From Candidatus Saccharimonadota bacterium (GTDB lineage: Bacteria; Bacillota_I; Bacilli_A; Mycoplasmatales; Hepatoplasmataceae), in contig NZ_CP006932.1 in NCBI RefSeq assembly GCF_000582535.1, positions 330,001 to 362,000 on the forward strand: a stretch of 32,000 nucleotides of DNA, in the 5' to 3' direction. Shown here one piece after another: positions 3,324-31,573 of this stretch. Position 1 is the stretch's first letter. Every line of letters starts with the position of its first letter. The notes under the pieces are model-generated. The model searched no databases. It saw nothing but the letters and a program-made list of their open reading frames with translations, and had not been told where the DNA came from. The position numbers were made by a program, and so were the translations under genes.

Positions 3324-4907
3324 ATGAAACTAGCGAAGATTTATATTAAAAGATTTAAAAATATTGAAAATTTAGAAATAAATTTTGAGAAATATAAAAA
3401 TCTTATAAGTATCATTGGCTTAAATAATATTGGCAAAACAAATATTTTGGAAGCCATTTATTTTTTTGAAACTTTAAAAATTCGAAAATTACGCAAAAAT
3501 GAAGAAAAATTTCAAAATGTAAGTTTCTTTTATAAGTTAGAAGAAGATGACCAAAGAAATTTTGATGATTATTTTTTAGAAATGAAAATGCAAAATCAAA
3601 ATAAAAATAAAACAATTGAGAAAAATTTAAATGAAAAACACGAAAAGACAGCTGATAAGACATACAAAAAAAGCATAACAAATTGAGATAAATTACAAGA
3701 ATTTGAAATAACTGTAGGATGAGATGATGAAATAAGAGATTATGTTAGATTTTTTCCAGAAGAAATCACTGATTCAAAATATTTTTATAAAAATATATAT
3801 GAAAAAAATAAATTTAGAGTATTTTATTTTGATAAAACACAAAAGAAAGATTTTTTGGAAAATCAATTCTTTATTAAAAGTAAAATTTTTCGAAAAATTT
3901 TAAAAAGTATTAATCATGATCATTTTATTAAAAATTTTTATAAATATAACGATATTGAATTAAATATAGAAATTGGAAAAATCGAAAAAGCAATTAGTAC
4001 TTTTTTATTTAGTAATTGAAATGATCGTGAAAATGAAAAATATATTGTAAAATTAATTTTACTTGATCGTAAATTAGGAAAATTTTCTTTAATTATAAAT
4101 AATAAAAATAATAAGAAAAATACATTTCAACCTGAAGAAAGTAGTGATGGATTAATATCAATTATTTTTATGAAATTATCAATTGGAGAAACTTTTTTCA
4201 AAAGATTGATTTTAATTGATGAACCGAATACTTTTCTCCATTCTTTAGCACAAATTAATTTACTAAATTATTTTAAAAGTATTATTACAAAAAATGATTG
4301 TAAGTTAATTTATACAACTCATTCTGAGCATCTTGTCGATTCAGAAATTCCAATAATTTATAAAAATAAAAATAATTGAGAAATTAAAATTATAAAAGAT
4401 ATTAAAGAATATCAAGATATTCAATTAAAAGTATTAGCTAATAATTTATTAATAAATAATCCAATTAATTTAATTTTAAATAAGGAAAAAGATTTCTATA
4501 AATTTATTGAATTTTATAATAAAAAAGAATATAAAATGTCTCTTACTTTCATACATACATTACTTGAAAAAGAGATTAATATTTTCATATATAAATTAAA
4601 TTTGAAAGATAAAATTACAAGTAAAAGTACTATATATGATAAATTAAAATTAATATTCGAAAAAGTAGAATTAGATAAAATAAAAATTAATCTTCCAATT
4701 GAAAAACAATTAATTGAAATTATTAAAAATAATTTTAAAAATTCATTATATCTTGCTTCTTTTCGTAACAAAGCAAGTTATGCTCACATTAATAATATAA
4801 AAGATCGCGATCTTGAAAATATAATTCCTATTGTGATCCTTACTTATCTTGCAAATATTGAATTTTTAAGAAGATTTCGCGAAATTGCTATTGATGGCAA
4901 GAAATAA
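3324..4907 (+). CDS. ABC/SMC-like (OLD / AAA_15-type) ATPase fused to a C-terminal helical domain with an R-x6-H HEPN-like motif (527 aa)
   Basis: Track ORFs 3324..3686, 4170..4379 and 4536..4907 share one frame. The only intervening stops are TGA (3684, 3720, 4017, 4377). Motifs: Walker A GLNNIGKT within IIGLNNIGKTNILEAIYFF (3417-3440); Walker B/D-loop RLILIDEPNTFLH (4203-4241); H-loop LIYTTHSEHLV; C-terminal FRNKASYAH (Arg codon 4764, His codon 4785). A GAAGGGA Shine-Dalgarno-like element lies about 6 nt upstream of the ATG. Confidence 0.8.
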
Positions 4908-8742: not shown

Positions 8743-10239
8743 CTATTTTTTCTTTTTATTTAAAATATTATTAATCTCATTTAATTCTTCTTGGATTGTT
8801 CTAATTATTTCATCATCACTATCACTATCATCATAATCATATCTTGTGTTATTTATTCTTTTTCTTTCTACTCTTCTTGTAGATTTTAATAAATTATTTT
8901 CTTCTCTAACACCATTTTCAATTTTATTTACCTTATTAGATAATTTTTCAATTTCTTTTTCTAAAGAGAGAAGAATATTTTCCATTCGATTATTTTTTTG
9001 ATTTGATCTTTTATCAATATTATATTTTTCTTTATATTTTTCTTCGATTTCCCGTTCAAGTTGTTGACGTGCAATTTGTTCAGTATTTTGTCTTACTAAT
9101 CTTAAATTTTCTTCTTGTAATTTTTTTAAATTATCAAATTCATGATCGAGTGAACTTTTAAAATAATAATCATCATAATATTTATCTTTATTATAATTAC
9201 TATTATTATTTTGACCTTGATGATAATAATTTTCCCGTTGATATTTTAAACGATTTAATTCTTCATTTTCTCTTTTTAATCTTTCTAATTCATCTTTTTC
9301 ACGCATTATTTTTAGATATCTTAAATTACTTTCCTCTTCATCATATTTATCATCATATGATTTTTTACGTCCTCTTTTAGATTCTTGCTCTTTTTCAGCA
9401 CGTAAATTTTCAAGTTCTTTTTTTAAAGAGTCTTGTTCACTTTTAAGAATATTTAATAATTCTCTTTCTTGTTTTAAAATTTCAAGCTCTTGTTTTCGTG
9501 ATTCTAAATTTTCAACATTTACTTCAATTGTTTCTGGTTCATCTATTCTTTTTTCAATAGTTTTTTCTGAACTAATTTCTTCTTCAACTTGTTTTCTAGC
9601 TAATTCCAATGCTTCTTTTTCCGTTTGTTCTTTTGTTAATTCTAAACGTTTTTTCTCAAAATTTAATTTTTCTTGTTCTAATTTAAGTCTTTCTTTTTCA
9701 AGTTTAATTTCTTCAGAATCTTCTTTTATAACTATTTCATTTTCATTTTGTGGATTAGCATTTTCTTTTATTTGTTCTATATTATTAACTTTTTCAATAT
9801 TTTTATCTTCTTCAAAATTATTTACAGGTTCATTAGTTACTTCTGGTTCTTTATTACCTTCGCCTTGCTGTGTTTTCATTTCTTCTATCATTATTAATTG
9901 TTCAAGACGATTTATAGAATATTCTTCAGGATTTTTAATTCCAAGAGCAAGTGCTTTTTCAATTAATTTTGCTTGATCTTGATTATTATCTGTAAAATTA
10001 TTATTTGAAGATTTTGTTTTTTCTAATTTTTTACGTTCTTTTTTGGAAATTTTTTGCTTTTTTTCTTTTTTGGGATTTAAAGAAAACTCATCTTCCATTC
10101 CTGCTAATTTTGATTTTGTCTGTTTTTTCTTAATTATTCTATTTCTTAATTTACGATTTTTAAAAAAAATTATAAGTAAAAGCGTAAGGAACAACAAAAA
10201 AATAAAAATCAATACAATTAATGCGATCATTAATGGCAT
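8743..10239 (-). CDS. N-terminally membrane-anchored long coiled-coil protein (498 aa)
   Basis: Single uninterrupted ORF. It has one N-terminal TM helix (MPLMIALIVLIFIFLLFLTLLLIIFF). The following ~470 aa are highly charged E/K/Q/L-rich sequence (EKERLKLEQEKLNFEKKRLELTKEQTEKEALELARKQVEEE). The C-terminus has an acidic DYDDSDSDDE patch. Confidence 0.75.
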   Translation of the reverse strand: MPLMIALIVLIFIFLLFLTLLLIIFFKNRKLRNRIIKKKQTKSKLAGMEDEFSLNPKKEKKQKISKKERKKLEKTKSSNNNFTDNNQDQAKLIEKALALGIKNPEEYSINRLEQLIMIEEMKTQQGEGNKEPEVTNEPVNNFEEDKNIEKVNNIEQIKENANPQNENEIVIKEDSEEIKLEKERLKLEQEKLNFEKKRLELTKEQTEKEALELARKQVEEEISSEKTIEKRIDEPETIEVNVENLESRKQELEILKQERELLNILKSEQDSLKKELENLRAEKEQESKRGRKKSYDDKYDEEESNLRYLKIMREKDELERLKRENEELNRLKYQRENYYHQGQNNNSNYNKDKYYDDYYFKSSLDHEFDNLKKLQEENLRLVRQNTEQIARQQLEREIEEKYKEKYNIDKRSNQKNNRMENILLSLEKEIEKLSNKVNKIENGVREENNLLKSTRRVERKRINNTRYDYDDSDSDDEIIRTIQEELNEINNILNKKKK

Positions 10240-10380
10240 ATTGTTTTCTCAAACATTTTGTCAATCCACACCTAAAGTTTGTGAATGCATAAGATTTAAT
10301 GTTAATATTTTTAAACTCATAATTTTTATTATATCACGCAATTATTTTAATAAAATAAATTTTTATCTAAAATAAATAGC

Positions 10381-10420: not shown

Positions 10421-11482
10421 TTATTTTGAAAAATATTTTTCTTCGATATCTTTTATATCATCTGTAAGTACTATTTTATCCATTCCAGTTAATATTAAAG
10501 AAATTTTTACATTATCCTCTAAAGCTTGGTTATTTGTTACTCCAAATATAATATCTAAATCATGACTTACTTTTTCTAAGATTTTATTAACAATAAATCT
10601 TACATATTCCATTTTTAAAATATTTGGTGATCCAGAAATACTTAAAAGTGCTTTTGTTGCTGTTTTAACATCAGAAGGAATAAAAGTAAGATCAAATAAT
10701 TTATCAATTGCTTCTTCAAATTTTTCTTTATTTTTATCTAACCCGTTTCCATCAATTCCTTTTGCAAAAGCAATATTTATAAATCCTCCACCTGAATCTT
10801 TAACTACTTTTCTAATATCAGCAAGATCAAGATTTATTAAAGCGTCTTCTAATAATAAATTTAAAATTGTAATTATTCCATCGCCTAAGTATTTATCAGC
10901 TTTTACGAATGTATGTTCAACTGTATCTGAAGAATGTTTTTTGAATAAATCATTATTATTTATAACAATAGACAAATCAGCATATTTTTCCATTGTTTTT
11001 AAACCTGTTAATGCATTATCCATTCTTTCTTTTCCCTCGAAAAGAAAAGGTAATGTTGAAACACCAATAGTTAAAATACCAAGATTTTTTGCAAGCCTTG
11101 CAATGTAAGGTCCTGCTCCTGTTCCTGAGCCTCCACCCATTCCTGTTGCAATAAATAAAAGTTTTTTATCAGCTAATCATTTTTCTAATCATTCTCGATC
11201 TTCTGCTGCTGCTTTTCATCCAATATCAGGATTTGATCCAGCTCCAAGACCTCTTGTTAAACGACGACCAATTAATTTACGTTCAAAAAATTTCAATTGG
11301 TCTTTTTTGTTTCCTTTTCTTTGTTTTTCCAATGCTTGAATATCTGTATTTATTGCTAAGAAACTAACATCAAAGGGTGCAAATTTATATGCATTGTTAG
11401 CAATGGCATTTGTTCCACCACCACCTGCACCAATAATTCCTATTTTTATTTTTTTAATTGGTTTTCTACTTTTTTCAGCCAT
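10421..11482 (-). CDS. ftsZ: cell division GTPase FtsZ (353 aa)
   Basis: Fragments 11216..11482 ([20 protein letters not shown]...) and 10421..11140 ([36 protein letters not shown]..., [11 protein letters not shown]) are in one frame. They are joined by [27 protein letters not shown], which contains three TGA=Trp codons. The tubulin signature appears as GGGSGTG. Confidence 0.93.
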
Positions 11483-13514: not shown

Positions 13515-13826
13515 TTATCCTTTTTCTTCACCACCTTCTGATATCGGAATCACATTAACAGTTAATTTTCCATTTTTTTTATAATATTTTACAATCCCAT
13601 TTAAAGTTGCAAATAAAGTATCATCTTTTCCTCTTTTTACATTTAAACCTGGATGAATTTTTGTTCCCCGTTGACGATAAATAATTGCTCCACTTTTAGC
13701 AATTTGCCCATCAGCAAGTTTTTGTCCTAATCTTTTGCTATGAGAATCTCTTCCATTTTTTGAAGAACCTGCACCTTTTTTATGTGCAAAAAATTGTAAA
13801 TCCAACTTATATCTTAATTTAAACAT
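13515..13826 (-). CDS. rpmA: ribosomal protein L27 with N-terminal propeptide
   Basis: [36 protein letters not shown]... This shows the LQFFA|HKKG Prp-cleavage motif followed by the canonical L27 core. Confidence 0.95.
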
Positions 13827-13834
13827 TTTCTCTC

Positions 13835-14152
13835 CTATCCTATTTTTATTTTTATATTATCGTAATTATCTTCTTGAAGGGTACTAAGAGAATAATATAA
13901 TCCTTTTAGTAAAATTTGATTTTGTATTGTTATCTTTAAAATATTTATTTCAATTAAATTATCTTTAATTAAAATCTGACAATTATTATGATCTAAATTG
14001 TCCAAACTGTTTACGGTTCCAAATATTATTGCAGAACATCCTGCACAAATTAATTTATTTTTTAAATCATCTTTGTTTAAATCAGCATGTCCTTTTATTT
14101 TAAATTTAATAAACTCTTGTTGTTTATTTTTATAAAAATTTATAAAAATCAT
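13835..14152 (-). CDS. prp: ribosomal-processing cysteine protease Prp (YsxB/DUF464)
   Basis: A 105-aa ORF sits between rplU and rpmA. The His/Cys dyad context is KGHADL...[12 protein letters not shown], and the operon position is the canonical one. Confidence 0.85.
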
Positions 14153-14153
14153 C

Positions 14154-14639
14154 TTATTTTTGATCTTTTTGCTTTTGATCTATATCATTAGTTTTTATTT
14201 TATCTGCTTTTTTAAGATCAGATTGATCAATTTTTTTCTCAATTAATTTTTGATTAGTAGTAATTTCTTTTATTTTATTTTTCTTATCATCATTATTATC
14301 AATATATTTATCAATTACTTGATCTTTATAAATAATTTCTTCGACCAAAAGTCTTGTATAAGGTTGCCTATGACCCTGTTTCCGTTTTCAGTTTGATTTT
14401 TGCTTAGTACGAAAAATAATAAGTTTTTTATTTTTCCCTTGTTTTTGTATTCGAGCTTTTATTTTAGCATCAATTTTAGGTGTTCCTGCGATTAGATTTT
14501 GTCCATCATAAATTGCAAGGACATTTGTAAAGATATATTCGCTTCCAATTTCTGAATTTAATTTTTCTACTCAGATAGCAGAACCAACATTAACTTTAAT
14601 TTGTTTTCCACCCGATTTTATAATCGCGTATTTTAACAT
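14154..14639 (-). CDS. rplU: ribosomal protein L21 with a ~55-aa K/D/Q-rich C-terminal tail (161 aa)
   Basis: ATG 14639..14637 begins MLKYAIIKSGGKQIKVNVGSAIWVEKLNSEIGSEYIFTNVLAIYDG...KQKSNWKRKQGHRQPYTRLLVEEIIYK, the full L21 core with TGA=Trp. The frame then stays open for DQVIDKYIDNNDDKKNKIKE...DQKQKDQK to the stop at 14154. Confidence 0.9.
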
Positions 14640-14720
14640 TTCTCTTTCCTCCAAAGACTCACCCTTTTTGGTAGTTTATAACTTTTAAAACCTAAAGGAG
14701 TGGTTGTTGTAAGATAATTT
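14640..14720 (-). promoter_or_regulatory. possible structured 5' leader of the rplU-prp-rpmA operon (L21-leader-like)
   Basis: This is a locally GC-enriched stretch immediately upstream of rplU. On the minus-strand RNA, CACUCCUUU can pair with AAAAGGGUG (8 of 9 pairs, including a G-U) across a ~25-nt loop, just 5' of the GGAGG Shine-Dalgarno. Ribosomal-protein leaders are known at this operon in Firmicutes. No covariance model was run. Confidence 0.25.
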
Positions 14721-16422: not shown

Positions 16423-16836
16423 TTAAACTTTCTGTAAATAATCTGTAAGCATAACATAAGCAGCAAATAAATCTTTATTTTTCTTATAATCTATTTTCTT
16501 ATTTTTAATAATTTCTTCTGCTCTTTTAGTTGTAAATCTTTCATCAAACAAAAAAATTTTAATATCTTGATTAATTTTTGCTTTAAGATATTTTAAGAAA
16601 ATTTCAACATATTCTGTTGCCTTTGTTTTTGTTCCATTTGTTTTAAGGGGATAACCAATAATTAATGTATCTAAGTCCTTATATTTCTCTAGTAAATCTA
16701 AAATTATTAAAGAAGCTTCTTCAAAATTAAATCTTTCAAAAAAATAATTTTTTAAAGGAATTGCAATAATATTATTCTTATCACTAATACAAACGCCGAG
16801 ACTTTTTTCTCCAACATCAATCGCTAATTTACGCAT
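16423..16836 (-). CDS. ruvX: putative pre-16S rRNA nuclease / Holliday-junction-resolvase-like YqgF (RuvX)
   Basis: [28 protein letters not shown]...LIIGYPLKTNGTKTKATEYVEIF...DERFTTKRAEE. It sits directly downstream of alaS, as in Firmicutes. Confidence 0.85.
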   Translation of the reverse strand: MRKLAIDVGEKSLGVCISDKNNIIAIPLKNYFFERFNFEEASLIILDLLEKYKDLDTLIIGYPLKTNGTKTKATEYVEIFLKYLKAKINQDIKIFLFDERFTTKRAEEIIKNKKIDYKKNKDLFAAYVMLTDYLQKV

Positions 16837-19528
16837 TTTCTTTTTCCTCGATAAATTTTTTAATGATTTCTTTTATTTTTATTAAATTAATAACTCTTCC
16901 ACCAAAAATATATAGTTGATTTTTCCCTCCCCCTTGTAAACCATTTTTTTTCAAAATTTCAATAAAATGATCAATTTCATTTATAAATAAATTATTTTTC
17001 CCTAAAATGATAAATAATGTATATTTATCATCTTTAAACAAAGCAAGAAATAATGTTTTATTTTGATAATTTTTAATTACTTGAAGAGAAATTGCAATTA
17101 AATCTTTTTGTAAAAAATTTTCTAAATCATAATAAATTAAATTTTTATTTTGCTCTAATATCTTTTCTAATTTGCTTTTTAATTTTTCGTTTTTTAAATT
17201 ATTGATAAAATCAAAAATATCTTTACTTTTTATAATTATATTATTTAATTTAAATTTAAAATTATCATCACTTAAATTTAAATTTAAAATTTCTTGTTTA
17301 ATATTATTTAAATCAATTAATTTTTCTGATGAAATAACTTTCTTATTTTCATAAATTAATTGATCAATTTTTTTTATTAAATTATTCCCTTTTTTATTTA
17401 ATAATTCAATATTTTGTGAAATTAAATATTTTTTGATTTCTTCTTTTCCACTTATCGCAATTAATCGATAAACTCCTGAACCTTTTTTTTCTAATTTTAC
17501 AATTTTAATTTCCTCAATTATCTTGATATTATCAACATGTGTTCCTCCACAAAGATCAATAGTTTTTTCATTTAATTTAACAACACGAACAAAATCCTTA
17601 TAATTTTTTGTTTCAAGATAACCTGGATTTAATTTTAAAGCATCTTCTAATTTAAGAATTTTAATTTCCGATTTAAATCCTTTTCTAATTCAATCATTTA
17701 CAATTTTTTCTGCTTTTTTTAAATCCTCTCATAGAAGATTTTTACTATAAGCAAAATCAAATCTTAAATAAGAAGAATCTACTTTAGATCCCTCTTGTTT
17801 TAAAGTTTGATTAAGTGTAATTTCTAAAGCTTTAAATAATAAATGTGTAGCAGAATGATTTTTTGTTAATTTTTCTCTACGATCAAGATCAATTTTTAAT
17901 GATACTTCTTGTCCTATTTTAAAAGGATTTTCCTCTAGCAAATGAATAAATAGATCATTTTCTGTTTTAAATACAGTAAGAACATTTATATTATCAATTG
18001 TTCCTAAATCAGATTCTTGTCCTCCAGAAGTTGCATAAAAAATTGTTTTATCACAAACTAAATAATTATCTTTAATTGCAATTACTTTTGCTTTTATTAT
18101 TTTTTGATAATCTTTATAACCTAAAAATTCTGTATTTTTAAAGTTAGGAAATAATTTTTTTTGTATTTTCATCCCTTTTGTAAAATTAGTATTTTGTTTA
18201 GATTTTAATTTAAATTGATCATTTAAATATGCTAATCTTTTATAATCGACTTCTATCTGATATTTTTTTGCAATTTTTTTAAGATAACTTAAATTTAAAG
18301 GTAATCCATATGTTTCATGTAATTTAAATAAATGATCTGTATCTAATTTATTTAATTCTTTATATTCAAAAAGAATTTTAAGAGCTTGTGTATATGTTTT
18401 ATTAAATTTATCTGCTTCATCAAAAATTAAATTTAAAATTTTTTCTTGATTTAATAATAAATGAGGATAAGCTTGCTTTTCATTTTGACAAATTATAGGA
18501 ATTAAATTTGTAAAAAAATCATAATTAATTTCTAATTGCTCCGCAATAATTATTGATTCTCTTAATAATCTTCTAATAACATATCCTCTGCCTGTAGAAC
18601 TAAAATTAGCTTGATCAGCTAACATAAAAGTAATTGATCTAGTAAAATCTGCAATTTTTTTAAATTCACTATTAATTTCTCATTGTTTTTTATTTTCTTT
18701 TAATAATTTTGTAGGATGATAATTCCATAAATATTTATAAGTTGATAATTTTTCTAATTCTTTAATTATTGGTTTAAAAATATCTGATTCAAAATTGGTT
18801 GGTGTTTTTTGAAATATCATTGCTAATCTTTCAAGTCCTGCACCTGTATCAATATTTTTCTGTGGTAATTCTTTATAATTATTATTTCCATCATTATTAA
18901 ATTCAGAAAAGACAATATTTCAAATTTCAATAAATCTATCATTTTCAATATCTCTTTCAATTAATGTTTTAGCATCTCGTTTATCAAAATTTATTCCTCG
19001 ATCATAAAAAATTTCTGTAGATGGACCACAAGGTCCCTTTCCGATATCTCAAAAATTAGTATCTCGACCCATTTTAAAAATATGATTTTTTGCAATGCTT
19101 TTTTTAATTCAAAAATTATATGCTTCATTATCATCTTCAAATACTGTAATATAAATTTTTTCTTTCGAAAAAGCAAAATATTTTTCTGAAAAAAGCAACT
19201 CATAAGCATAATCAATTGCTTCTTTTTTAAAATAATCACCAATTGAAAAATTACCAAGCATTTCAAAAAATGTTTGATGTCTTGCGGTAATTCCAATTTT
19301 ATCAATATCGCCTGTTCTAATTGAACGCTGATAATTAACAAGACGTTTGCTTGGTGGTTTTTTTTCTGCACTAAAATATTTTTTTAAAGTTGCAATTCCT
19401 GAATTTATTCATAAAAGTGAATTATCATTTTTTGGAATTAAAGAAGAAGAAGGAATTAATAAGTGATTTTTTTCTGTAAAAAAATCAATTCATAATTTTC
19501 TTATCTGATTTGAATTTAATTTTTTCAT
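16829..19528 (-). CDS. alaS: alanyl-tRNA synthetase (about 899 aa); the reading frame needs two compensating 1-nt corrections near 19441 and 19380
   Basis: [29 protein letters not shown]..., [21 protein letters not shown], the editing-domain motifs [13 protein letters not shown] and CGGTHV, and a C-terminal GGGK. Fragments 16829.. and 17729.. share the frame of the ATG. Codons about 30-49 lie in a frame displaced by 1 nt (see findings). Confidence 0.85.
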
Positions 19529-19664: not shown

Positions 19665-20702
19665 TTAAATAGTTTTTTTACTTTTAGATAAGATTAATCC
19701 AACACTTCCTAAAAATAAAATATAAAAATAAGGAATTATAATATAAGCAGATCATAATAGACATTTGAAACTAAACATTTGATACTTAAATAAAACTCAT
19801 GTACTAGGATTATTTATATCAATTATAATTTGATCATTAGGAAGATTTATTCCTGGAAGAGTAATAGTTACATAACGAAAAGTATCATAAAGCATATCAA
19901 ATTGTCCTCATTTTGTAATTCAATAATAAGGATTTATCATCTGCATAAAATTACGAAATGTAAATGTATTAAAATATCTTTTTTCAATTGAAATATTTCG
20001 ATCAAAATAAGGTTTAAAAGTAATAATTTGACTTTCTTGATTATAGCTATATAAAATATCATTTGGATTACTACTTGGAGTTGGATTGAAAAAAATATCA
20101 ACTTCTAGTGTTCCTGAAAACATAATAAAAATAATAAATAAAAATATTGAAATTAAAATAAAATTAGCAAAATTTTTACTTAAATTTTGAATTAAAAAAG
20201 CAAGAACAAAAGTAATTAAGAAAATAATAATAAGATAGTAGATAAAAATTCCTCATCGATAATCAGTAATATTTCTTATTTGATAATGATGATCAGGAGA
20301 GTTTCAACTAGAAATTGCCATCAAATCTAATTGCATAAAAATAAAAGTAATAAATAATGTAACTAAAAAAGTAGCAAATGCTACAATTATTAAATTTAAA
20401 AATATCGGAAGATATATATATAATTTATTATTAACTTTTTGTTTTACTAATATATAAAAATGAGACCTACGAAAATTAAAAAAAAGCATTCCATAAAAGA
20501 TAAATACATTAAATACAATTGTAAATGCAAATACACTATCAATTACTAAATAAGAGGGAAAGCTTGTATAAAAAGCAATTGTAAATATAAGAGGAACAAA
20601 TAATATTAATATATAAAATCAAAATGACAAAATCATTTTTCTAAAATATAGAACTGTAAGATTTATTCAATTTATATTTCTATAAATTTTAAAAATTTTC
20701 AT
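19665..20702 (-). CDS. paralogous 6-TM membrane protein, copy 1 (345 aa)
   Basis: I translated the full length under code 4. MKIFKIYRNINWINLTVLYF...FNFRRSHFY...DYRWGIFIYY...SNPNDILYSYNQESQIITFKPYF...FTFRNFMQMINPYYWITKWGQFD...LPGINLPN...NPSTWVLFKYQMFSFKCLLWSAY... ending at TAA 19665-19667. All internal stops are TGA. Confidence 0.85.
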
Positions 20703-20760
20703 TTTTTCAAATTATAAAAAAATTATATTAAACATAATTATCATATAATACTTCTAATTA

Positions 20761-21807
20761 TTATATATTTTTCTCTTTTTTTGCAATAAAAATTCCTAAA
20801 AAACCATAAAACAAAATGAATAAATAAGGAACCAAAATATAAGAAGACCACAATAAACATTTAAAACTAAACATCTGATATTTAAATAAAACTCATGTAC
20901 TAGGATCATTTACATCAATTATTAATTGATTATTAGGAAGACCTATTCCTGGAAGAAGTAATGTTGTATTACGATAATTATTAAAAAGCATATCATATTG
21001 TCCTCATTTTGTAATTCAATAATAAGGATTTATCATCTGCATAAAATTACGAAATGTAAATTTATAAAAATACTTATTTTGAATATTTAATGGATCATTA
21101 CGATTAAAATAAGGTTTAAATGTAACAATTTGACTATCTTGATTATAACTATATAAAATATCATTTGGATTGCTACTAGGTACTGGACCTAAAAAAGCAG
21201 AAATTTCTAAAGTACCGGAAAAAACAACAAATAAAACAAATAAAAAAATTGAAATTATCATAAATCTATTAAAAGTTTTACTTAAATTTTGGATTAAAAA
21301 AGCAAGAACAAAAGTAATTAGGAAAAAAATAATAAGATAATAGATAAAAATTCCTCATCGATAATCAGAAATGCTTCGAATATGATAATAATGATCAGGA
21401 GAATTTCAACCAGGAACTGACATTAAATCAAATTGAAGAAATAAATATGTAATAAAAAGAGTAACAGTAAAAGTAAAAATTACAACTATTATTAAATTCA
21501 AAAAGATCGGAAGATAAACATATATTTTATTATTATTAAATTTTTGTGTTATTAATATATAAAAATGTGATCTTCTAACATTAAAAAATAAAATTCCATA
21601 AAATATAAGAACATTAAATACAACAGAAAAAGCAAATACACTATCAATTACTAAATAAGAAGGCGTATTCGTAAAAAAAGAAATACAAAATAAAAAAGGA
21701 ATAAAAATTACTAATATATAAAATCAAAATGATAACATCATTTTTTTAAAATAGAGGTTAGTAAGATTTACTAAATTTATATTTTTTTCAAAATTAAAAT
21801 AATCCAT
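20761..21807 (-). CDS. paralogous 6-TM membrane protein, copy 2 (348 aa)
   Basis: I translated the full length. MDYFNFEKNINLVNLTNLYF...FNVRRSHFY...DYRWGIFIYY...SNPNDILYSYNQDSQIVTFKPYF...FTFRNFMQMINPYYWITKWGQYD...DPSTWVLFKYQMFSFKCLLWSSY... ending at TAA 20761-20763. It appears about 70% identical to copy 1 by eye. Confidence 0.85.
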
Positions 21808-21855
21808 TTTTTATAGTAAAATAATTATCTGAATAATTTGATTCCTTTTATTATT

Positions 21856-22899
21856 TTAATTATGATATATTTTCTTTACTTTCAAAATTATAATTCCTAA
21901 AAAACCATAAAATAAAATAAAAAAATAAGGAAGAAAAAGATAACAAGATCATAATAAACTCTTAAATGAAAACATTTGATATTTAAGTAAAACTCATGTA
22001 TTAGGATCACTTGCATTTATTATTAACTGATCATTTGGTAAACCAATTCCTGGAAGCATAATTGTTGTAATACGATAATTATCAATAAAAATATCAAATT
22101 GTCCTCATTTTGTAATTCAGTAATATGGATTTATCATCTCTAAAAAATTACGGAATGTAAATGTTCTAAAAAATTCTTTCTCAATAAAATAGGGATCATT
22201 ATAATCAAAATAAGGTTTAAAAGTAATAACTCGATTAACAGGATCATAACTATATAAAAGATCATCAGGATTATTACTAGGTACTGGATTTAAAAATATA
22301 GTTATTTCTAATACTCCCGAAAAAAAGAAAAAAAAGACAAATAAAAAAATTGAAATTAAAATATAACTATTAAAACTCCTACTTATCGCTTGAATTAAAA
22401 AAGCAAGCATAAAAGTAATAAAAAAAATAATTGCAATATAATAAATTAAAATCCCTCATCGATAATCCGAAATATCTTTTATTTCGTAATAATGATCTGC
22501 ATTAGTTCAATTTGCGATTGCCATCCAATCTAATTGCATAAAAATAAAAGTAATAAAAAGGGTAATTAAAAAAGTAATAATACTAACAATAATTAAATTT
22601 AAAAATAAAGGAATATAAATAAATAATTTACTTTTAAATTTTTGTTTTACTAATGGATAAAAATGTGATCTACGAAAATTAAAAAATAAGATTCCATAAA
22701 AAATTAAAACATTTAATACAATTGTAAATGCAAATATATCGTTAATTGTAAGAAAAGCTGGTAGGATTGTATAAAAAGAAATTGATATCATTAAAGGAAC
22801 AAAAATCAGAAAAATATAAAATCAAATTGATAAAACCATTTTATTAAAATAAAATGAAGTAAGATTTATTCAATTTATATTTCTACTATTTTTATTCAT
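21856..22899 (-). CDS. paralogous 6-TM membrane protein, copy 3 (347 aa)
   Basis: MNKNSRNINWINLTSFYF...FNFRRSHFY...DYRWGILIY...NNPDDLLYSYDPVNRVITFKPYF...FTFRNFLEMINPYYWITKWGQFD...DPNTWVLLKYQMFSFKSLLWSCY... ending at TAA 21856-21858. One frame, with only TGA interruptions. Confidence 0.85.
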
Positions 22900-22932
22900 C
22901 TAAGCTTTAAAATTTATTTCTATAATAATACT

Positions 22933-23988
22933 TTAATTATGATATATTTTTACTTTCTTTGTAATTATAATTCCTAAAATTCCGTAGAAAAAAACAAAAA
23001 TATAGGGAACAAAAATATAACTAGATCACAATCAATTTGTAAATGAAAACATTATATAATCATATTTTACTCATGTACTAGGATCATTAGGATTTATCGA
23101 TATTGGATCTATTCCAGGAAGTGTAAGTGATGTAGTTCGATAAAAATCAACAAAAATATCAAATTGCCCTCATGCTGTAAGATAATAATAAGGATTAAAC
23201 ATCTGAATAAATCGATAAACGGAAAAATCTGTAAAAAATCTTTTATCATAAAAATCTGGATCATTACGATCAAAATAAGGTTTAAAAGTAAGAACTTGTG
23301 TATTTTGATTGTAACTATATAAAAGATTATCTTCTGTTCCTTCTTTAAATCTTGGTGTATCAAATGCAGAAACTATTCCAAAAGTACCAGAAAAAAGAAT
23401 TTCAAGAATTATTATAAATAAGCAAAATAAAAGATATGTATTAAAATTATTACTTAAAGTTTGAATTAAAAAAGCAAGAGTAAAAGTAACTAAAAAAGTA
23501 ATTATTAAATAATAAATTAAAAGCCCTCAATCAAAATCTTTAATATCTTTTATTTGATAATAATAATTATCATTATATGTTCAAGTTTGCAAAAATAATC
23601 AGTCTAAACTTTCAAATATTGCAAAAAAGCAAATTGCAATAATTGTTGTAAATATTACAACAATTATTAAATTTAAAAAAATGGGAAAATAAATAAGAAT
23701 TTTTCGATCATTAAATTTCTGACTAATTAAAGGATAAAAGTGTGATCGATGAAAATTAAAAAATAAGATTCCATAAAAAAGCAAAACATTAAAAATTACA
23801 GAAAAAGTAATTACACTATCTATTACCAAAAAATCAGGAGTTTGTGTAAGGAAAGAAAAACAAAATAAAAAAGGAACAAGAATAACTAAAAAATAAAACC
23901 AAAAAGAAAAAAACAATTTTTTTAGAAAAAAAACTGTAATTTTATTTAAATCTAAATAATATAAAAAACTTGTTTTTTCTTTTCTCAT
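22933..23988 (-). CDS. paralogous 6-TM membrane protein, copy 4 (351 aa, most divergent)
   Basis: MRKEKTSFLYYLDLNKITVFF...FNFHRSHFY...DFDWGLLIYY...EDNLLYSYNQNTQVLTFKPYF...FSVYRFIQMFNPYYYLTAWGQFD...LPGIDPI...DPSTWVKYDYIMFSFTNWLWSSY... ending at TAA 22933-22935. The start lies 36 nt downstream of the nrdF stop. Confidence 0.85.
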
Positions 23989-27544: not shown

Positions 27545-29464
27545 TTATTTAAAATCTATTACGATAATTTTGTCTTTGATTATTCTTAACTTATAATCAC
27601 TTTTATCTTGAAAATATTTTTTAAAATTATTCTCTAAATATTTTTTTAATTCAGAGATATTTTTAATATTTATTGAATTTTCTTCTAAGATTTTACCTCT
27701 AATTTTGCCATTTATTTGTACAAGGTAAATCTTGTTTTGTTCTTTCTTTTTTATTGTATATTTTTTAGGTCAAGTTTGATTAAAAAAATTAATAATTTTT
27801 TTTTCTGTTAAAAAAGCAATTTCTTCTGATATATGTGGAGCATAACAAGATAAAATTTTAAGAAAAGAAATTCTTATATTTTTTGTAATATTTTTCTTTT
27901 TATAAAAAAAATTCACAAAAATCATCATTTCGGAAATAGCCGTATTAAATTTTAAATGTTCAAAATCTTTTTCAATTTTTATTAAAAATTTATTAAATTT
28001 TTCTTTCATTTCTTGATCTGCTTCTTTTACAATTTTTAAATTTGTTTCATCAACAAATAAGCGATAAACTCTTTGTAATCAATTATAAATACCATTAATT
28101 GATTCTTCTGATCAAGGTTTATCATCAGCAAGAGGACCCATAAACATTAAATAAACTCTTAATGTATCAGCTCCATATTTTTCTATTATTAGATCAGGAT
28201 TTATAATATTCCCTTTAGATTTGGACATTTTTTGTCCATTTGGACCTAAAATCATTCCTTGATTAAATAAACAAATAAATGGTTCTTTTACTTTTGTGAT
28301 CTTTTGATCATATAAAAATAAATGTCAAAATCTTGCATAAAGTAAGTGTAAAACTGCATGTTCTTGTCCTCCAATATAAAGATCAACTGGTAATCATTTA
28401 TTTATAATTTTTTTAGCTTCAATAGAATTTAAATCTAAATAAGTTTGATCATCTTTTTTTAATAAATACGCAATATAATATCAGCATGAACCAGCTCATT
28501 GTGGCATTGTATTTAAATCTCTTGTTCCTTTTTTACCATTTATTTCTACATTAATTCAATTTTTAGCATGACTTAGAGCAGGTTTTCCATCTTGATTAAA
28601 GTTGTAATTTTTAATATTTGGTAATTCAATTGGATATTCTTCTTCCGGAATTAAATAGATTTCTCCATTTTCAAAATGAATAATTGGAAATGGTTCCCCT
28701 CAATATCTTTGTCTCGCAAAAATTCAATCTTTTAAATGTAATTTATCAGTAAAATTATCATTATGATCTTTTAAATAAATTCAATTTTTTTGTAAATTTT
28801 TTACTGATTCTGGTCAATCGAGATATGATAATCCTTTAAATAAACGATCGGCATACTTTGTAATTTTAAGAACTCATTGTTTCATTTTTTTATTATAAAC
28901 AGGAAGTTCATCTCGTTCTGAAACTCGTTCTCCTTTTTTATTTAAAATTACTTCTTCATTCGCCAATACTGTATTTAAAGAAGGCGATCAATTAACATCT
29001 ATTTCTTTAAGTTCTGCTAATCCATTTTTATAAAGCATTGCAAAAATTACTTGTGTAATTTTAAAATAATTTTTATCAGTTGTATTTATTTCTTTTGTTC
29101 AATCAAAGCTAAATCCAAATTTTTTTAACTGATTACGAAAATTATTAATATTTTTATTAGTAAATTCAATAGGAGAGTTACCTGTTTTTATTGCATATTG
29201 TTCTGCAGGAAGGCCAAAAGCATCAAAACCAATCGGATGTAAAACTTCATATCCTTGCATTTTTTTCATTCTTGCAATGATATCTGTTGCTGTATATCCT
29301 TCAGGATGACCAACATGTAATCCAGCGCCAGAAGGATAAGGAAACATATCCAAAGTATAATATTTATTTTTTTTAGAATTTAAATTTGTATAAAAAATAT
29401 TATATTTATCTCAATGATTTTGTCATTTTTTTTCTATTAAAAGATGATCAAATTTTTTTTCCAT
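27545..29464 (-). CDS. leuS: leucyl-tRNA synthetase lacking the CP1 editing domain (639 aa)
   Basis: I translated it continuously in one frame. [24 protein letters not shown]...[19 protein letters not shown] (HIGH) ...[69 protein letters not shown]...[16 protein letters not shown]...KMSKSKGN... ending at TAA 27545-27547. It is about 160-200 aa shorter than canonical bacterial LeuRS. Confidence 0.93.
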
Positions 29465-29607: not shown

Positions 29608-30912
29608 ATGGAAAAAACAATTAGTGGATACGACTACAAAAACCAGAAAATAAGAATTACAATCAGGAACGATAAAATTGCTAATATTGAGTATTTAGAT
29701 AAAAAAGATTATGTTGATGATTTTTTAATTATTCCTGGATTTATTGATATTCATACTTATGGTGGTTATGGTTTTGATTGATTAAGCGGAAAAAAAGAAT
29801 ATGCAATTAAATATTTAAAAGATGTGGCATTACATGAAGGAGTTACTTCTGTTGTTGGAACTTTACCAACAATTGATGTAAAAAGTTTAAGAGATTCACT
29901 AGAAAATATTTCAGATTTAATGAGAGAGAATGTAAATGGAGCAAATTTTTTGGGATGACATATCGAAGGACCTTTTATTAGTGAGGAAAAACCAGGCAGT
30001 TTTTTTGATAGATTATCTGTAAGAAAATTGACTTTCTATAATTTAGATAAATATTTTAATAATTATCTTCATACAATAAAAATTATGACTTTAGATCCAA
30101 AAGATGTTGATCAAGAAGTATTGGATATTTTAAATACAAATAAAATTAAAATTTTTGCCGGACATACAAAAGCAGAAAAAAAAGACATAATGGGAAAATC
30201 TATTAATGGAATAACACATTTTAATCATGCAATGATTAAACTTGGGGAAAAAAATGATAGTTTGGCAAAATATGGACTTAAGAATAAAAAAATATATATT
30301 GAATTTATAAATGATGGGATTCATAATAGTTTTCGAGAAACTAAAAAAATTTACAAGAAAAAAGATAAGAAACATTTAATATTAATTACTGATTCTTTAC
30401 ATGTAAAAGGATTAGAAGATGGAGAATATGTAATTTTTAATCGTTACTTTGAAAAAAAGGATGATGCAGTATATAATAACCATGGACAAATTGTTGGTTC
30501 TGTGCACACAATGCTTAATGCTTTTAAATATTGACGATTATTAGGAGCATCCCTTGAAAAATGTATTTATGCAACATCAACAAATGCTGCAGAATTATTA
30601 AATTTAAATAAAGGAAAAATAAAAAAAGGCTATGATGCTGATATTTTAATTTTAAATCGGAAAGATTTTGCAATTAAAAATGTTTATGTTGGAGGAAAAG
30701 AATTAGAAACAAAAAAAGAAAAAATAAAAAGAGAGGCAAAAGAAGAAGAAATTGAAAAACAACATAAAGAAGAAAAAGATGTTGAAAGTATCCCAATTAA
30801 AAAACTTTTAAGAGAATATTCAAAAGAAGAGAAAAAATTAACAGATCGAATTGAAAAAGAAAAAAAAGGAGAAAATATTAAAAAAGATCAAAAAGATGAA
30901 AATAATTCGTAG
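29608..30912 (+). CDS. nagA: N-acetylglucosamine-6-phosphate deacetylase NagA with a K/E-rich C-terminal tail (434 aa)
   Basis: MEKTISGYDY...IIPGFIDIHTYGGYGFDW...GWHIEGPFIS...FAGHTKA...ITHFNHAM...INDGIHN...LITDSLHVKG...GYDADILIL. These are the amidohydrolase NagA blocks, with TGA=Trp at 29779 and 30535. The first-metal HxH reads H-T-Y. Stop is TAG 30910-30912. Confidence 0.88.
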
Positions 30913-31573
30913 TGAGACGAATCAAATATTAGATATCATTTCTACTAAAGTCATAAATATAATAAAAGAAAAAGAAGATGCTAATTTACTGATTACTTCT
31001 GAAAAAGAATTAATAAGTCTCTATCAACAAATTGTAAATAAATATCAAAATCAAATAATTAGTTTTGTTCAATCTAAAGTTTTTATTTTAAGTGAATATA
31101 TAAATTCAATTCAAGAAAAAGTAGATTCATTAAATAAAATAATTGATAATAATTTAATTAAAAAAATCGATATCAAACAAGAAAATTTTCATTTTCCAAA
31201 AGATGTTTATTCTTATAATCAAATTATTAATAACATTTCCTTTTTTGATTTTACTTTACTTTATTTAGATGACGATTTTAAAATTTCTTTTAATCACTTA
31301 GATGGAAAATTAATTAATCAAACTAAAATAATTGGATTATCTGATCGTTCAATTAGAAACAGATTTAAAGAAGAAAAAGACCATCCACATCTTGCAATTA
31401 CAATGGGAATAAAAGATATTTTTTATAAAAGTAAGGAAATAAATCTTTTAATATTAGGAAATAATAAAAAGCAAATTTTAAATAAAATAGAAAATAAGAA
31501 AAAAAATGATTCTTTATTTCTTAAATTTTTATTGAACCATCAAAATATTACAATATTTACTGATATAAGATAA
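30896..31573 (+). CDS. NagB-fold (glucosamine-6-phosphate deaminase/isomerase-like) protein with non-canonical active-site motifs (225 aa)
   Basis: It is colinear with NagB. MKIIRSE...IKEKEDANLLITSEKEL(for GLATGxTP)...ISF...VFILSEY(for NLDEY)...FDFTLLYLDDDFKISFNHL(for LLGIGxNGHIGFNEP)...PHLAITMGIKDI...INLLILGNNKKQIL. The ATG at 30896 is preferred over the track TTG at 30851. It overlaps the nagA 3' end by 17 nt. Confidence 0.7.
   Translation: MKIIRSETNQILDIISTKVINIIKEKEDANLLITSEKELISLYQQIVNKYQNQIISFVQSKVFILSEYINSIQEKVDSLNKIIDNNLIKKIDIKQENFHFPKDVYSYNQIINNISFFDFTLLYLDDDFKISFNHLDGKLINQTKIIGLSDRSIRNRFKEEKDHPHLAITMGIKDIFYKSKEINLLILGNNKKQILNKIENKKKNDSLFLKFLLNHQNITIFTDIR

Follow-up and report, generated by a model that had tools for sequence, protein, structure and literature searches.

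A leucyl-tRNA synthetase without the CP1 editing domain in a mollicute of the Candidatus Hepatoplasma lineage

The CP1 domain is typical of canonical leucyl-tRNA synthetase (LeuRS), where it hydrolyses Ile-, Met- and norvalyl-tRNALeu and is dispensable for aminoacylation. The leuS gene found in a 32,000-nucleotide stretch of contig NZ_CP006932.1 (positions 330,001 to 362,000, assembly GCF_000582535.1; the whole stretch is referred to below as the window) encodes a LeuRS from which this domain is missing. The locus raises the questions of whether the gene is intact, how its product would serve the accuracy of leucine codons, and whether CP1 was lost in this lineage or in an ancestor shared with other mycoplasmas. 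The gene is a naturally CP1-less, intact leucyl-tRNA synthetase. Enzymes of this type are already known, that of Mycoplasma mobile having been assayed and crystallised in 2011-2013, and orthologues from Hepatoplasma have been public since 2014. A single further gene adds little; the value of the locus lies in the breadth of the architecture and in its probable independent origin in the Hepatoplasmataceae. Taken as a whole, the analysis makes it highly likely that the window encodes a working CP1-less LeuRS of a Candidatus (Ca.) Hepatoplasma-lineage mollicute, devoid of post-transfer editing in cis; CP1 was probably lost here independently of M. mobile.

The leuS gene and the CP1 junction

Under genetic code 4 the gene forms one uninterrupted open reading frame (ORF) of 639 residues on the minus strand (Table 1). 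Genetic code 11 was also tried and rejected, the region falling into short ORFs broken at 17 TGA codons; code 4 was adopted because of this fragmentation. Tryptophan is encoded in leuS by TGA at all 17 sites and never by TGG, an extreme choice that fits the very low GC content, and each of the 17 codons aligns to a Trp column that is invariant (14 columns) or dominant in 36 relatives. The protein scored 708.5 bits against the NCBIfam equivalog TIGR00396 (leuS_bact), above the cut-off of 548.4, and the runner-up families (ValRS, IleRS and MetRS) remained far under their own cut-offs. Pfam matches comprised tRNA-synt_1 (aa 13-448), tRNA-synt_1g and Anticodon_1 (aa 483-593). The C-terminal tRNA-binding domain is likewise present, as seen from an alignment to M. 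mobile LeuRS (PDB entry 3ZIU) that reaches residue 633 and from a beta/alpha module at residues 579-638 of an AlphaFold2 (AF2) model. Across 36 CP1-less homologues 110 columns are invariant, including the HIGH and KMSKS signatures. The class Ia catalytic core, the anticodon-binding domain and the C-terminal tRNA-binding domain are all retained in the window LeuRS.

The extent of the deletion was apparent from a phmmer alignment with Thermus thermophilus (Tt) LeuRS (1H3N), which was recovered in three blocks: query 4-230 with Tt 3-225, query 242-407 with Tt 417-579, and query 412-593 with Tt 637-832. Between Tt 225 and Tt 417, query residues 231-241 are left without a partner; thus, 11 residues replace the approximately 191 residues of CP1 (Tt 226-416). 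The LeuRS editing domain PF13603 was not found by a Pfam search of the window LeuRS, and the leuS_bact profile was matched in two stretches with its middle skipped, the C-terminal stretch beginning at profile position 409. Likewise, no CP1-like coding sequence, whether a remnant or a split part, was detected in any frame of the 32-kb window by tblastn and hmmsearch. In the AF2 model, which was computed with 36 homologues as input (pLDDT 89.6, pTM 0.85), the junction is a beta-hairpin with strands at residues 230-232 and 238-242, and the block 231-240 has a pLDDT of 93. Foldseek placed the two chains of M. mobile LeuRS at ranks 1 and 2 (3ZIU_A and 3ZIU_B; E 3e-67 and 2e-65), the model superposing on them with TM scores of 0.82-0.91 (TMq 0.82, TMt 0.84-0.91), whereas it covers just ~60% of canonical LeuRS structures, with a TMt of ~0.6. 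The strands that lead into and out of CP1 are fused as a short hairpin, and the site at which Ile-, Met- and norvalyl-tRNALeu are hydrolysed is therefore absent in cis.

A second canonical insertion is also missing, as the four residues GPNG stand for the 57-residue leucine-specific domain (Tt 580-636). This absence is ancestral here, because every CP1-bearing relative examined among the Bacilli and Mollicutes has the same four-residue loop; for the same reason, the G-x-x-G tetrapeptide, being common to CP1-bearing LeuRS of both groups, is not diagnostic of the CP1-less type. Bacillus subtilis LeuRS has also been reported to be without the leucine-specific domain (PMC3643597).

The first-pass annotation of this DNA, made from the sequence letters, had described a single-frame LeuRS of 639 residues with an intact catalytic core and a deleted CP1. 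The code 4 ORF and the HVGH, KMSKS and QRYWGEP motifs bear out the former part, and the 1H3N alignment, the missing PF13603, the gap in the NCBIfam match, the AF2 and Foldseek results and the empty window search the latter. An alignment with Thermus LeuRS and a structure model were among the checks that it had proposed, and both confirm that CP1 is absent. Its linker of ~14 residues stood in part: the peptide does lie at exactly 28736-28777, but in a structural alignment the part left unmatched has 11 residues, not 14.

Table 1. Positions, within the window, of the leuS gene and of the motifs discussed in the text
Feature	Position	Strand	Evidence
leuS, 639-aa bacterial-type LeuRS without CP1 and leucine-specific domain	27545..29464	(-)	Table-4 translation, TIGR00396, Pfam, best PDB match 3ZIU
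HIGH signature, as HVGH (aa 50-53)	29306..29317	(-)	H50, V51, G52 and H53 invariant in 36 CP1-less relatives
11-residue linker (aa 231-241) in the place of CP1	28742..28774	(-)	Unaligned in phmmer versus 1H3N; beta-hairpin aa 230-242 with flanking strands
His243, immediately before the L-K-D-W strand	28736..28738	(-)	His in 148/156 CP1-less LeuRS
QRYWGEP (aa 252-258), catalytic core restart past the CP1 insertion point	28691..28711	(-)	Invariant in the relatives' alignment
GPNG tetrapeptide (aa 407-410) replacing the leucine-specific domain	28235..28246	(-)	Counterpart of GKDG 398-401 in M. mobile LeuRS
KMSKS signature (aa 412-416)	28217..28231	(-)	Invariant in the relatives' alignment

Known relatives and fidelity without CP1

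The window LeuRS and M. mobile LeuRS gave one continuous phmmer alignment (query 5-633, 3ZIU 9-632; E 4e-213). Both are of the bacterial type and ~630-640 residues long, with a short peptide for CP1 between QxNWI and the L(K/Q) strand, which has the pattern L-x-DW-x-F-(A/S)-RQRYWG, and a G-x-x-G tetrapeptide for the leucine-specific domain just before KMSKS. However, the two proteins are only 54.6% identical, and they differ in the linker (11 residues in the window, the nonapeptide KEEIDGKIT in M. mobile), in the tetrapeptide (GPNG versus GKDG) and in the residue before LKDW (His versus Lys). The window also stems, unlike M. mobile, from an arthropod-gut symbiont with ftsZ, and its LeuRS falls in a clade of the tree described below that is separate from the M. 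mobile type, implying a separate deletion. The best matches were orthologues of 633-639 residues from Ca. Hepatoplasma crinochetorum (80.5% identity), Ca. H. scabrum (80%), Ca. H. vulgare (63%) and Ca. Tyloplasma litorale (62%), all of which have in common with the window protein a linker of the type Y-x-K-D-x-N-x-N-F-T-D-K-L-H. With 80% amino acid identity to the nearest Hepatoplasma LeuRS, the window represents another species or strain. The LeuRS of M. synoviae, according to Li et al., reportedly has a degenerate editing domain. Microsporidia are likewise described, in an account of Melnikov et al. (2018) given in PMC7373986, as having a degenerate or truncated LeuRS editing domain. As in the window, LeuRS post-transfer editing has been lost in these genome-reduced, host-associated organisms, and codon ambiguity has been proposed for them; they retain a mutated or shortened CP1, whereas in the window LeuRS the domain has been excised completely. 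The Hepatoplasma and Tyloplasma genome papers are silent on LeuRS and its missing domain (PMC3942034, PMC4536667, PMC10928387).

The loss of post-transfer editing in cis follows from the absence of CP1 from the sequence. Hepatoplasma LeuRS would accordingly be expected to charge tRNALeu and to leave mischarged products uncorrected after transfer, and its fidelity would depend on discrimination at the synthetic site together with weak, tRNA-independent pre-transfer editing. The outcome may be some statistical mistranslation of leucine codons, as measured for the M. mobile enzyme, and the organism would then tolerate a degree of Leu-codon ambiguity. Further work on M. mobile LeuRS is said to have been published by Li et al. 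(PNAS, 2011 and 2013) and Tan et al. (Biochem J, 2012). In the study of Yan et al. (2013, NAR; PMC3643597), M. mobile LeuRS charged tRNALeu, mischarged Ile and did not deacylate Ile-tRNALeu, tRNA-independent pre-transfer editing being the only editing left. Substitutions at Leu codons in the M. mobile proteome are attributed to Li et al. (2011) in PMC7373986 and PMC10057733.

This reading would fail if ~570 nucleotides of CP1 had been lost in an assembly or sequencing artefact, or if the gene were a decaying pseudogene. Nothing speaks positively for either, the sole basis being that the contig is derived from a metagenome or from short reads. In the independent Logan assembly of SRR17180998 the locus recurs with 99.27% DNA identity over 5.9 kb and no gaps, and the leuS of that assembly differs from that of the window by 17 nucleotides (14 synonymous and 3 non-synonymous changes) and no indel, a pattern that fits purifying selection (crude dN/dS ~0.06). 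Ca. H. crinochetorum, where the locus is syntenic, and Ca. H. scabrum both have orthologues of 638 residues in their genomes, and CP1-less LeuRS make up at least 156 clusters in the databases. A loss of ~570 nucleotides from the assembly near 28.75 kb, which the earlier annotation had named as the result that would overturn its claim, is ruled out by the second assembly and the H. crinochetorum orthologue; the precise reading frame, the invariant catalytic motifs and the excess of synonymous strain differences argue equally against a pseudogene, and the probability left for artefact or decay is negligible. Alternatively, fidelity could be kept by editing in trans, through a second full-length leuS, a free-standing CP1-like protein or another deacylase. 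AlaX, YbaK and ProX do serve other synthetases in this manner, and the search for another leuS copy or a stand-alone CP1 covered 32 kb of the genome, a scope that counts against the absence of editing. Within these 32 kb no CP1-like sequence was found, however, and none of the named CP1-bearing matches in two lists of the best 120 was a Hepatoplasma protein. We know of no natural free-standing LeuRS CP1, which also tells against editing in trans. Moreover, a survey of Mollicutes recorded no YbaK, ProX or AlaX homologue in any species (PMC4014445), and M. mobile, with the same architecture, mistranslates according to the accounts of Li et al. (2011) cited above. Editing in trans is thus regarded as very improbable. 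It is somewhat less remote, though still unlikely, that the loss of CP1 is offset by a synthetic site of greater selectivity or by efficient editing before transfer, a proposal made for some organellar synthetases, so that Leu codons are read accurately. Where an editing domain has been lost, error rates do not always go up (PMC11415595). The architecture persists under purifying selection in two families, and beside the junction His has replaced Lys or Arg more than once, in separate CP1-less clades, a hint of adaptive tuning after the loss. Against such compensation, this analysis did not turn up any synthetic-site-specific substitution. Pre-transfer editing was reportedly found by Li et al. 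(PNAS, 2013) to be insufficient to block mischarging. M. mobile LeuRS, the sole enzyme of the type to have been assayed, still mischarges Ile (PMC3643597). The preferred reading remains an enzyme that charges tRNALeu without post-transfer editing, Leu-codon mistranslation in Hepatoplasma being expected by analogy with M. mobile.

Distribution and origin of the CP1-less architecture

Among the best 120 clusters (90% identity) retrieved with the window protein, 97 have a length of 617-652 residues and no PF13603, and three homologue searches combined gave at least 156 clusters of CP1-less LeuRS at the same identity level; with 50%-identity representatives, all of these fall in one cluster. Named carriers are M. 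mobile, Mesomycoplasma moatsii, Metamycoplasma sualvi, Mycoplasma marinum, M. todarodis, Mycoplasmopsis agassizii and Ca. M. mahonii, to which are added the Bathynomus symbiont Bg2 and many metagenome-assembled genomes associated with fish and invertebrates. CP1-less LeuRS is far commoner than the single case of M. mobile, and its breadth had been underestimated in the first-pass annotation. A DNA pattern scan of genome contigs for the CP1-less junction, which is a sample and no census, returned at least 17 true junctions among the matches listed. The other 103 of the 120 listed matches were rejected as false, the canonical CP1 motif I-(E/D)-(W/Y/F), 19 residues before DW, mimicking AATTGANT out of frame. 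A literature search found no paper that describes this distribution; Li et al. 2011/2013 and Melnikov et al. 2018 may already tabulate part of it.

Further short, CP1-less LeuRS of the bacterial type, less than 50% identical to the window protein, were noted among the representatives P0369, P0420, P0413, P0484, P0431, P0416, P0395 and P0385. In the divergent metagenomic proteins P0369 and P0420 the linker is as short as 4 residues (QKVWLENLKDW and QRNWIAQMRDW), and other metagenomic representatives carry CP1 remnants of 66-150 residues, forming a continuum of partial truncation.

Many CP1-less LeuRS go under inconsistent names in databases, where the M. mobile and M. moatsii proteins are named 'class I tRNA ligase family protein' and those of Ca. 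H. scabrum, Ca. H. vulgare and Ca. T. litorale 'hypothetical protein', despite the fact that the window protein clears the NCBIfam LeuRS equivalog cut-off. With names as vague as these, genome-based metabolic and translation inventories could wrongly score carriers as lacking LeuRS.

The number of losses was addressed with a neighbour-joining tree of Kimura distances (204 LeuRS, 615 CP1-free columns, 200 bootstraps). CP1-bearing LeuRS of Metamycoplasmataceae were added through a search with the M. mobile sequence (M. lagogenitalium, M. molare, M. canis, M. edwardii, M. cynos, M. arthritidis, M. spumans, M. equirhinis, M. iguanae and M. zalophi). At 98% bootstrap, all CP1-less LeuRS of the M. 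mobile type and the CP1-bearing Metamycoplasmataceae LeuRS make up one clade, to which the Hepatoplasma-type clade with the window protein does not belong. On this tree a minimum of two deletions is consequently needed, provided that the domain never returns, and the minimum becomes four when nodes below 95% are collapsed. CP1 was thus probably lost at least twice, the loss in Hepatoplasmataceae being separate from the M. mobile event. Three CP1-bearing proteins, P0269, P0296 and P0318, have cores 80-82% identical to CP1-less proteins resembling that of M. moatsii. The CP1-bearing LeuRS nearest to the window's clade (P0079, P0140, P0088 and P0054; loci L121-L123) have eroded editing motifs or internal CP1 deletions, and in the P0079 group TTRPDT has decayed to TTMPEY, GTG to EES, and AHDERD to LDDNRD or has been deleted. 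Judged from their sequences, the erosion in the P0079 group looks like a path of decay followed by excision, and this group together with P0269, P0296 and P0318 looks like a set of intermediates toward the excision of CP1. The residue before L-(K/R)-D-W shows a corresponding pattern: it is His in 148 of the 156 CP1-less LeuRS and Lys or Arg in all 169 matched CP1-bearing relatives, and the CP1-bearing proteins nested among CP1-less LeuRS still carry Lys at the position of His243. The change to His would be convergent, because the CP1-less clades appear to have separate origins, and it seems to come after the loss of CP1.

A single CP1 deletion in an ancestor of Hepatoplasmataceae and Metamycoplasmataceae, or horizontal spread of the deleted gene, would explain why the deletion boundaries of the Hepatoplasma and M. 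mobile types agree within a few residues, why His243 and Ala250 are shared, and why both have a one-residue insertion near residue 175; it would also suit the position of the two as sister families (PMC10928387). Convergent boundaries are, however, to be expected, because they are set by the two-strand hinge of CP1. The M. mobile-type cores join the CP1-bearing Metamycoplasmataceae at 98% with the Hepatoplasma clade excluded, P0269, P0296 and P0318 retain CP1 in spite of their close core identity to M. moatsii-like proteins, and with CP1-bearing LeuRS standing among CP1-less ones, a single loss would therefore require several re-insertions of the domain. One ancestral deletion or horizontal spread is considered improbable on these grounds. 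Several observations nevertheless weigh against an independent loss. It is drawn from neighbour-joining on Kimura distances and not from a maximum-likelihood or site-heterogeneous model, and the eroded-CP1 group is placed as sister of the window's clade with only 38% support. Before the CP1-bearing Metamycoplasmataceae sequences were added, the tree could not reject monophyly of the CP1-less LeuRS (32% versus 34%), and between a single and a separate loss the signature residues divide 8 to 8 and the indels one each way. Flanking genes are a mixed marker: the pair leuS-trmB is common to Bg2 and the eroded-CP1 group, and leuS followed by a gene for a Cof-like (HAD-family) hydrolase, identified by sequence motif only, is common to OZ245334 and Ca. 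M. mahonii. On balance, recurrent and convergent excision of CP1 in the Mycoplasmatales is somewhat favoured, with one event in Hepatoplasmataceae and at least one in Metamycoplasmataceae (at least four in all on the tree), with erosion preceding excision, the same beta-hairpin formed each time and Lys or Arg replaced by His in nearly all CP1-less LeuRS.

CP1-less LeuRS marks an entire symbiont family and a large block of Metamycoplasmataceae with several cultured species, and the series of intact, eroded and absent CP1 offers comparative material on the loss of editing, on its compensation (e.g. the recurrent His) and on tolerated Leu-codon ambiguity. If excision has indeed recurred, whole families of mollicutes from invertebrate and fish guts would long have lived without LeuRS post-transfer editing, and they would amount to natural replicate experiments on the cellular tolerance of Leu-codon ambiguity.

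Source organism and genomic neighbourhood

The window has a GC content of ~21% (16-25%), and shares with H. crinochetorum (CWGI01000001.1) the gene order amidohydrolase-leuS-nrdI-nrdE-nrdF-membrane paralogues-alaS-ruvX, over ~12 kb of synteny. An Rfam scan of the window detected no 16S rRNA gene, and the placement at genus level is based on protein data for that reason. Judged by its LeuRS relatives, synteny, low GC and the use of UGA for Trp, the source is a Ca. Hepatoplasma-lineage mollicute. Hepatoplasma mollicutes inhabit the midgut gland of isopods as extracellular symbionts, and the Hepatoplasmataceae are sister to the Metamycoplasmataceae (Hominis group) (PMC3942034, PMC10928387). FtsZ is encoded at 10421-11482 (-), with the Tubulin and FtsZ_C domains, and alanyl-tRNA synthetase (AlaRS) at 16829-19528 (-), with HSATH (aa 558-562), CGGTH (aa 660-664) and a tRNA_SAD domain. 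These results agree with the earlier proposal of an M. mobile-type LeuRS from another lineage, in view of 3ZIU as the closest structure, the 54.6% identity and the Hepatoplasma relatives. The argument from ftsZ used in that proposal was sound, M. mobile being without this gene (PMC8475190), and its statement that AlaRS keeps its editing motifs holds as well. According to PMC7373986, the number of editing activities lost in a mycoplasma never reaches three.

The only match in the Rfam scan of the window was an L21_leader at 14645-14715 (-) (37.3 bits, gathering score 36), which precedes the rplU-prp-rpmA operon (13515-14654); no T-box was detected before leuS or alaS, nor any other leader before leuS, and no tRNA genes were found in the window. 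Four tandem paralogues encoding polytopic membrane proteins of 345-351 residues occupy 19665-23988 (-), of which the two tested (19665-20702 and 22933-23988) had no Pfam match, and the syntenic stretch of H. crinochetorum has three such paralogues versus the four in the window. Directly upstream of ftsZ, at 8743-10341 (-), lies a gene for a protein of ~525 residues that combines a single N-terminal membrane segment with a long, coiled-coil-like region rich in Lys and Glu, and for which Pfam returned nothing significant. A 527-residue AAA_15/AAA_21 ATPase of the ABC type is encoded at 3324-4907 (+); PADLOC gave AriA, Old, GajA and PtuA as its best matches (E 4e-18 to 1e-11), i.e. it is of a defence type, in a symbiont genome of ~0.6 Mb. 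Divergent from leuS, the NagA-like amidohydrolase at 29608-30912 (+) carries a Lys/Glu-rich C-terminal tail of ~70 residues that is absent from the H. crinochetorum orthologue (434 residues in the window versus 374), and this tail overlaps with the beginning of the following ORF at 30851-31573 (+), which is weakly glucosamine-6-P isomerase-like.

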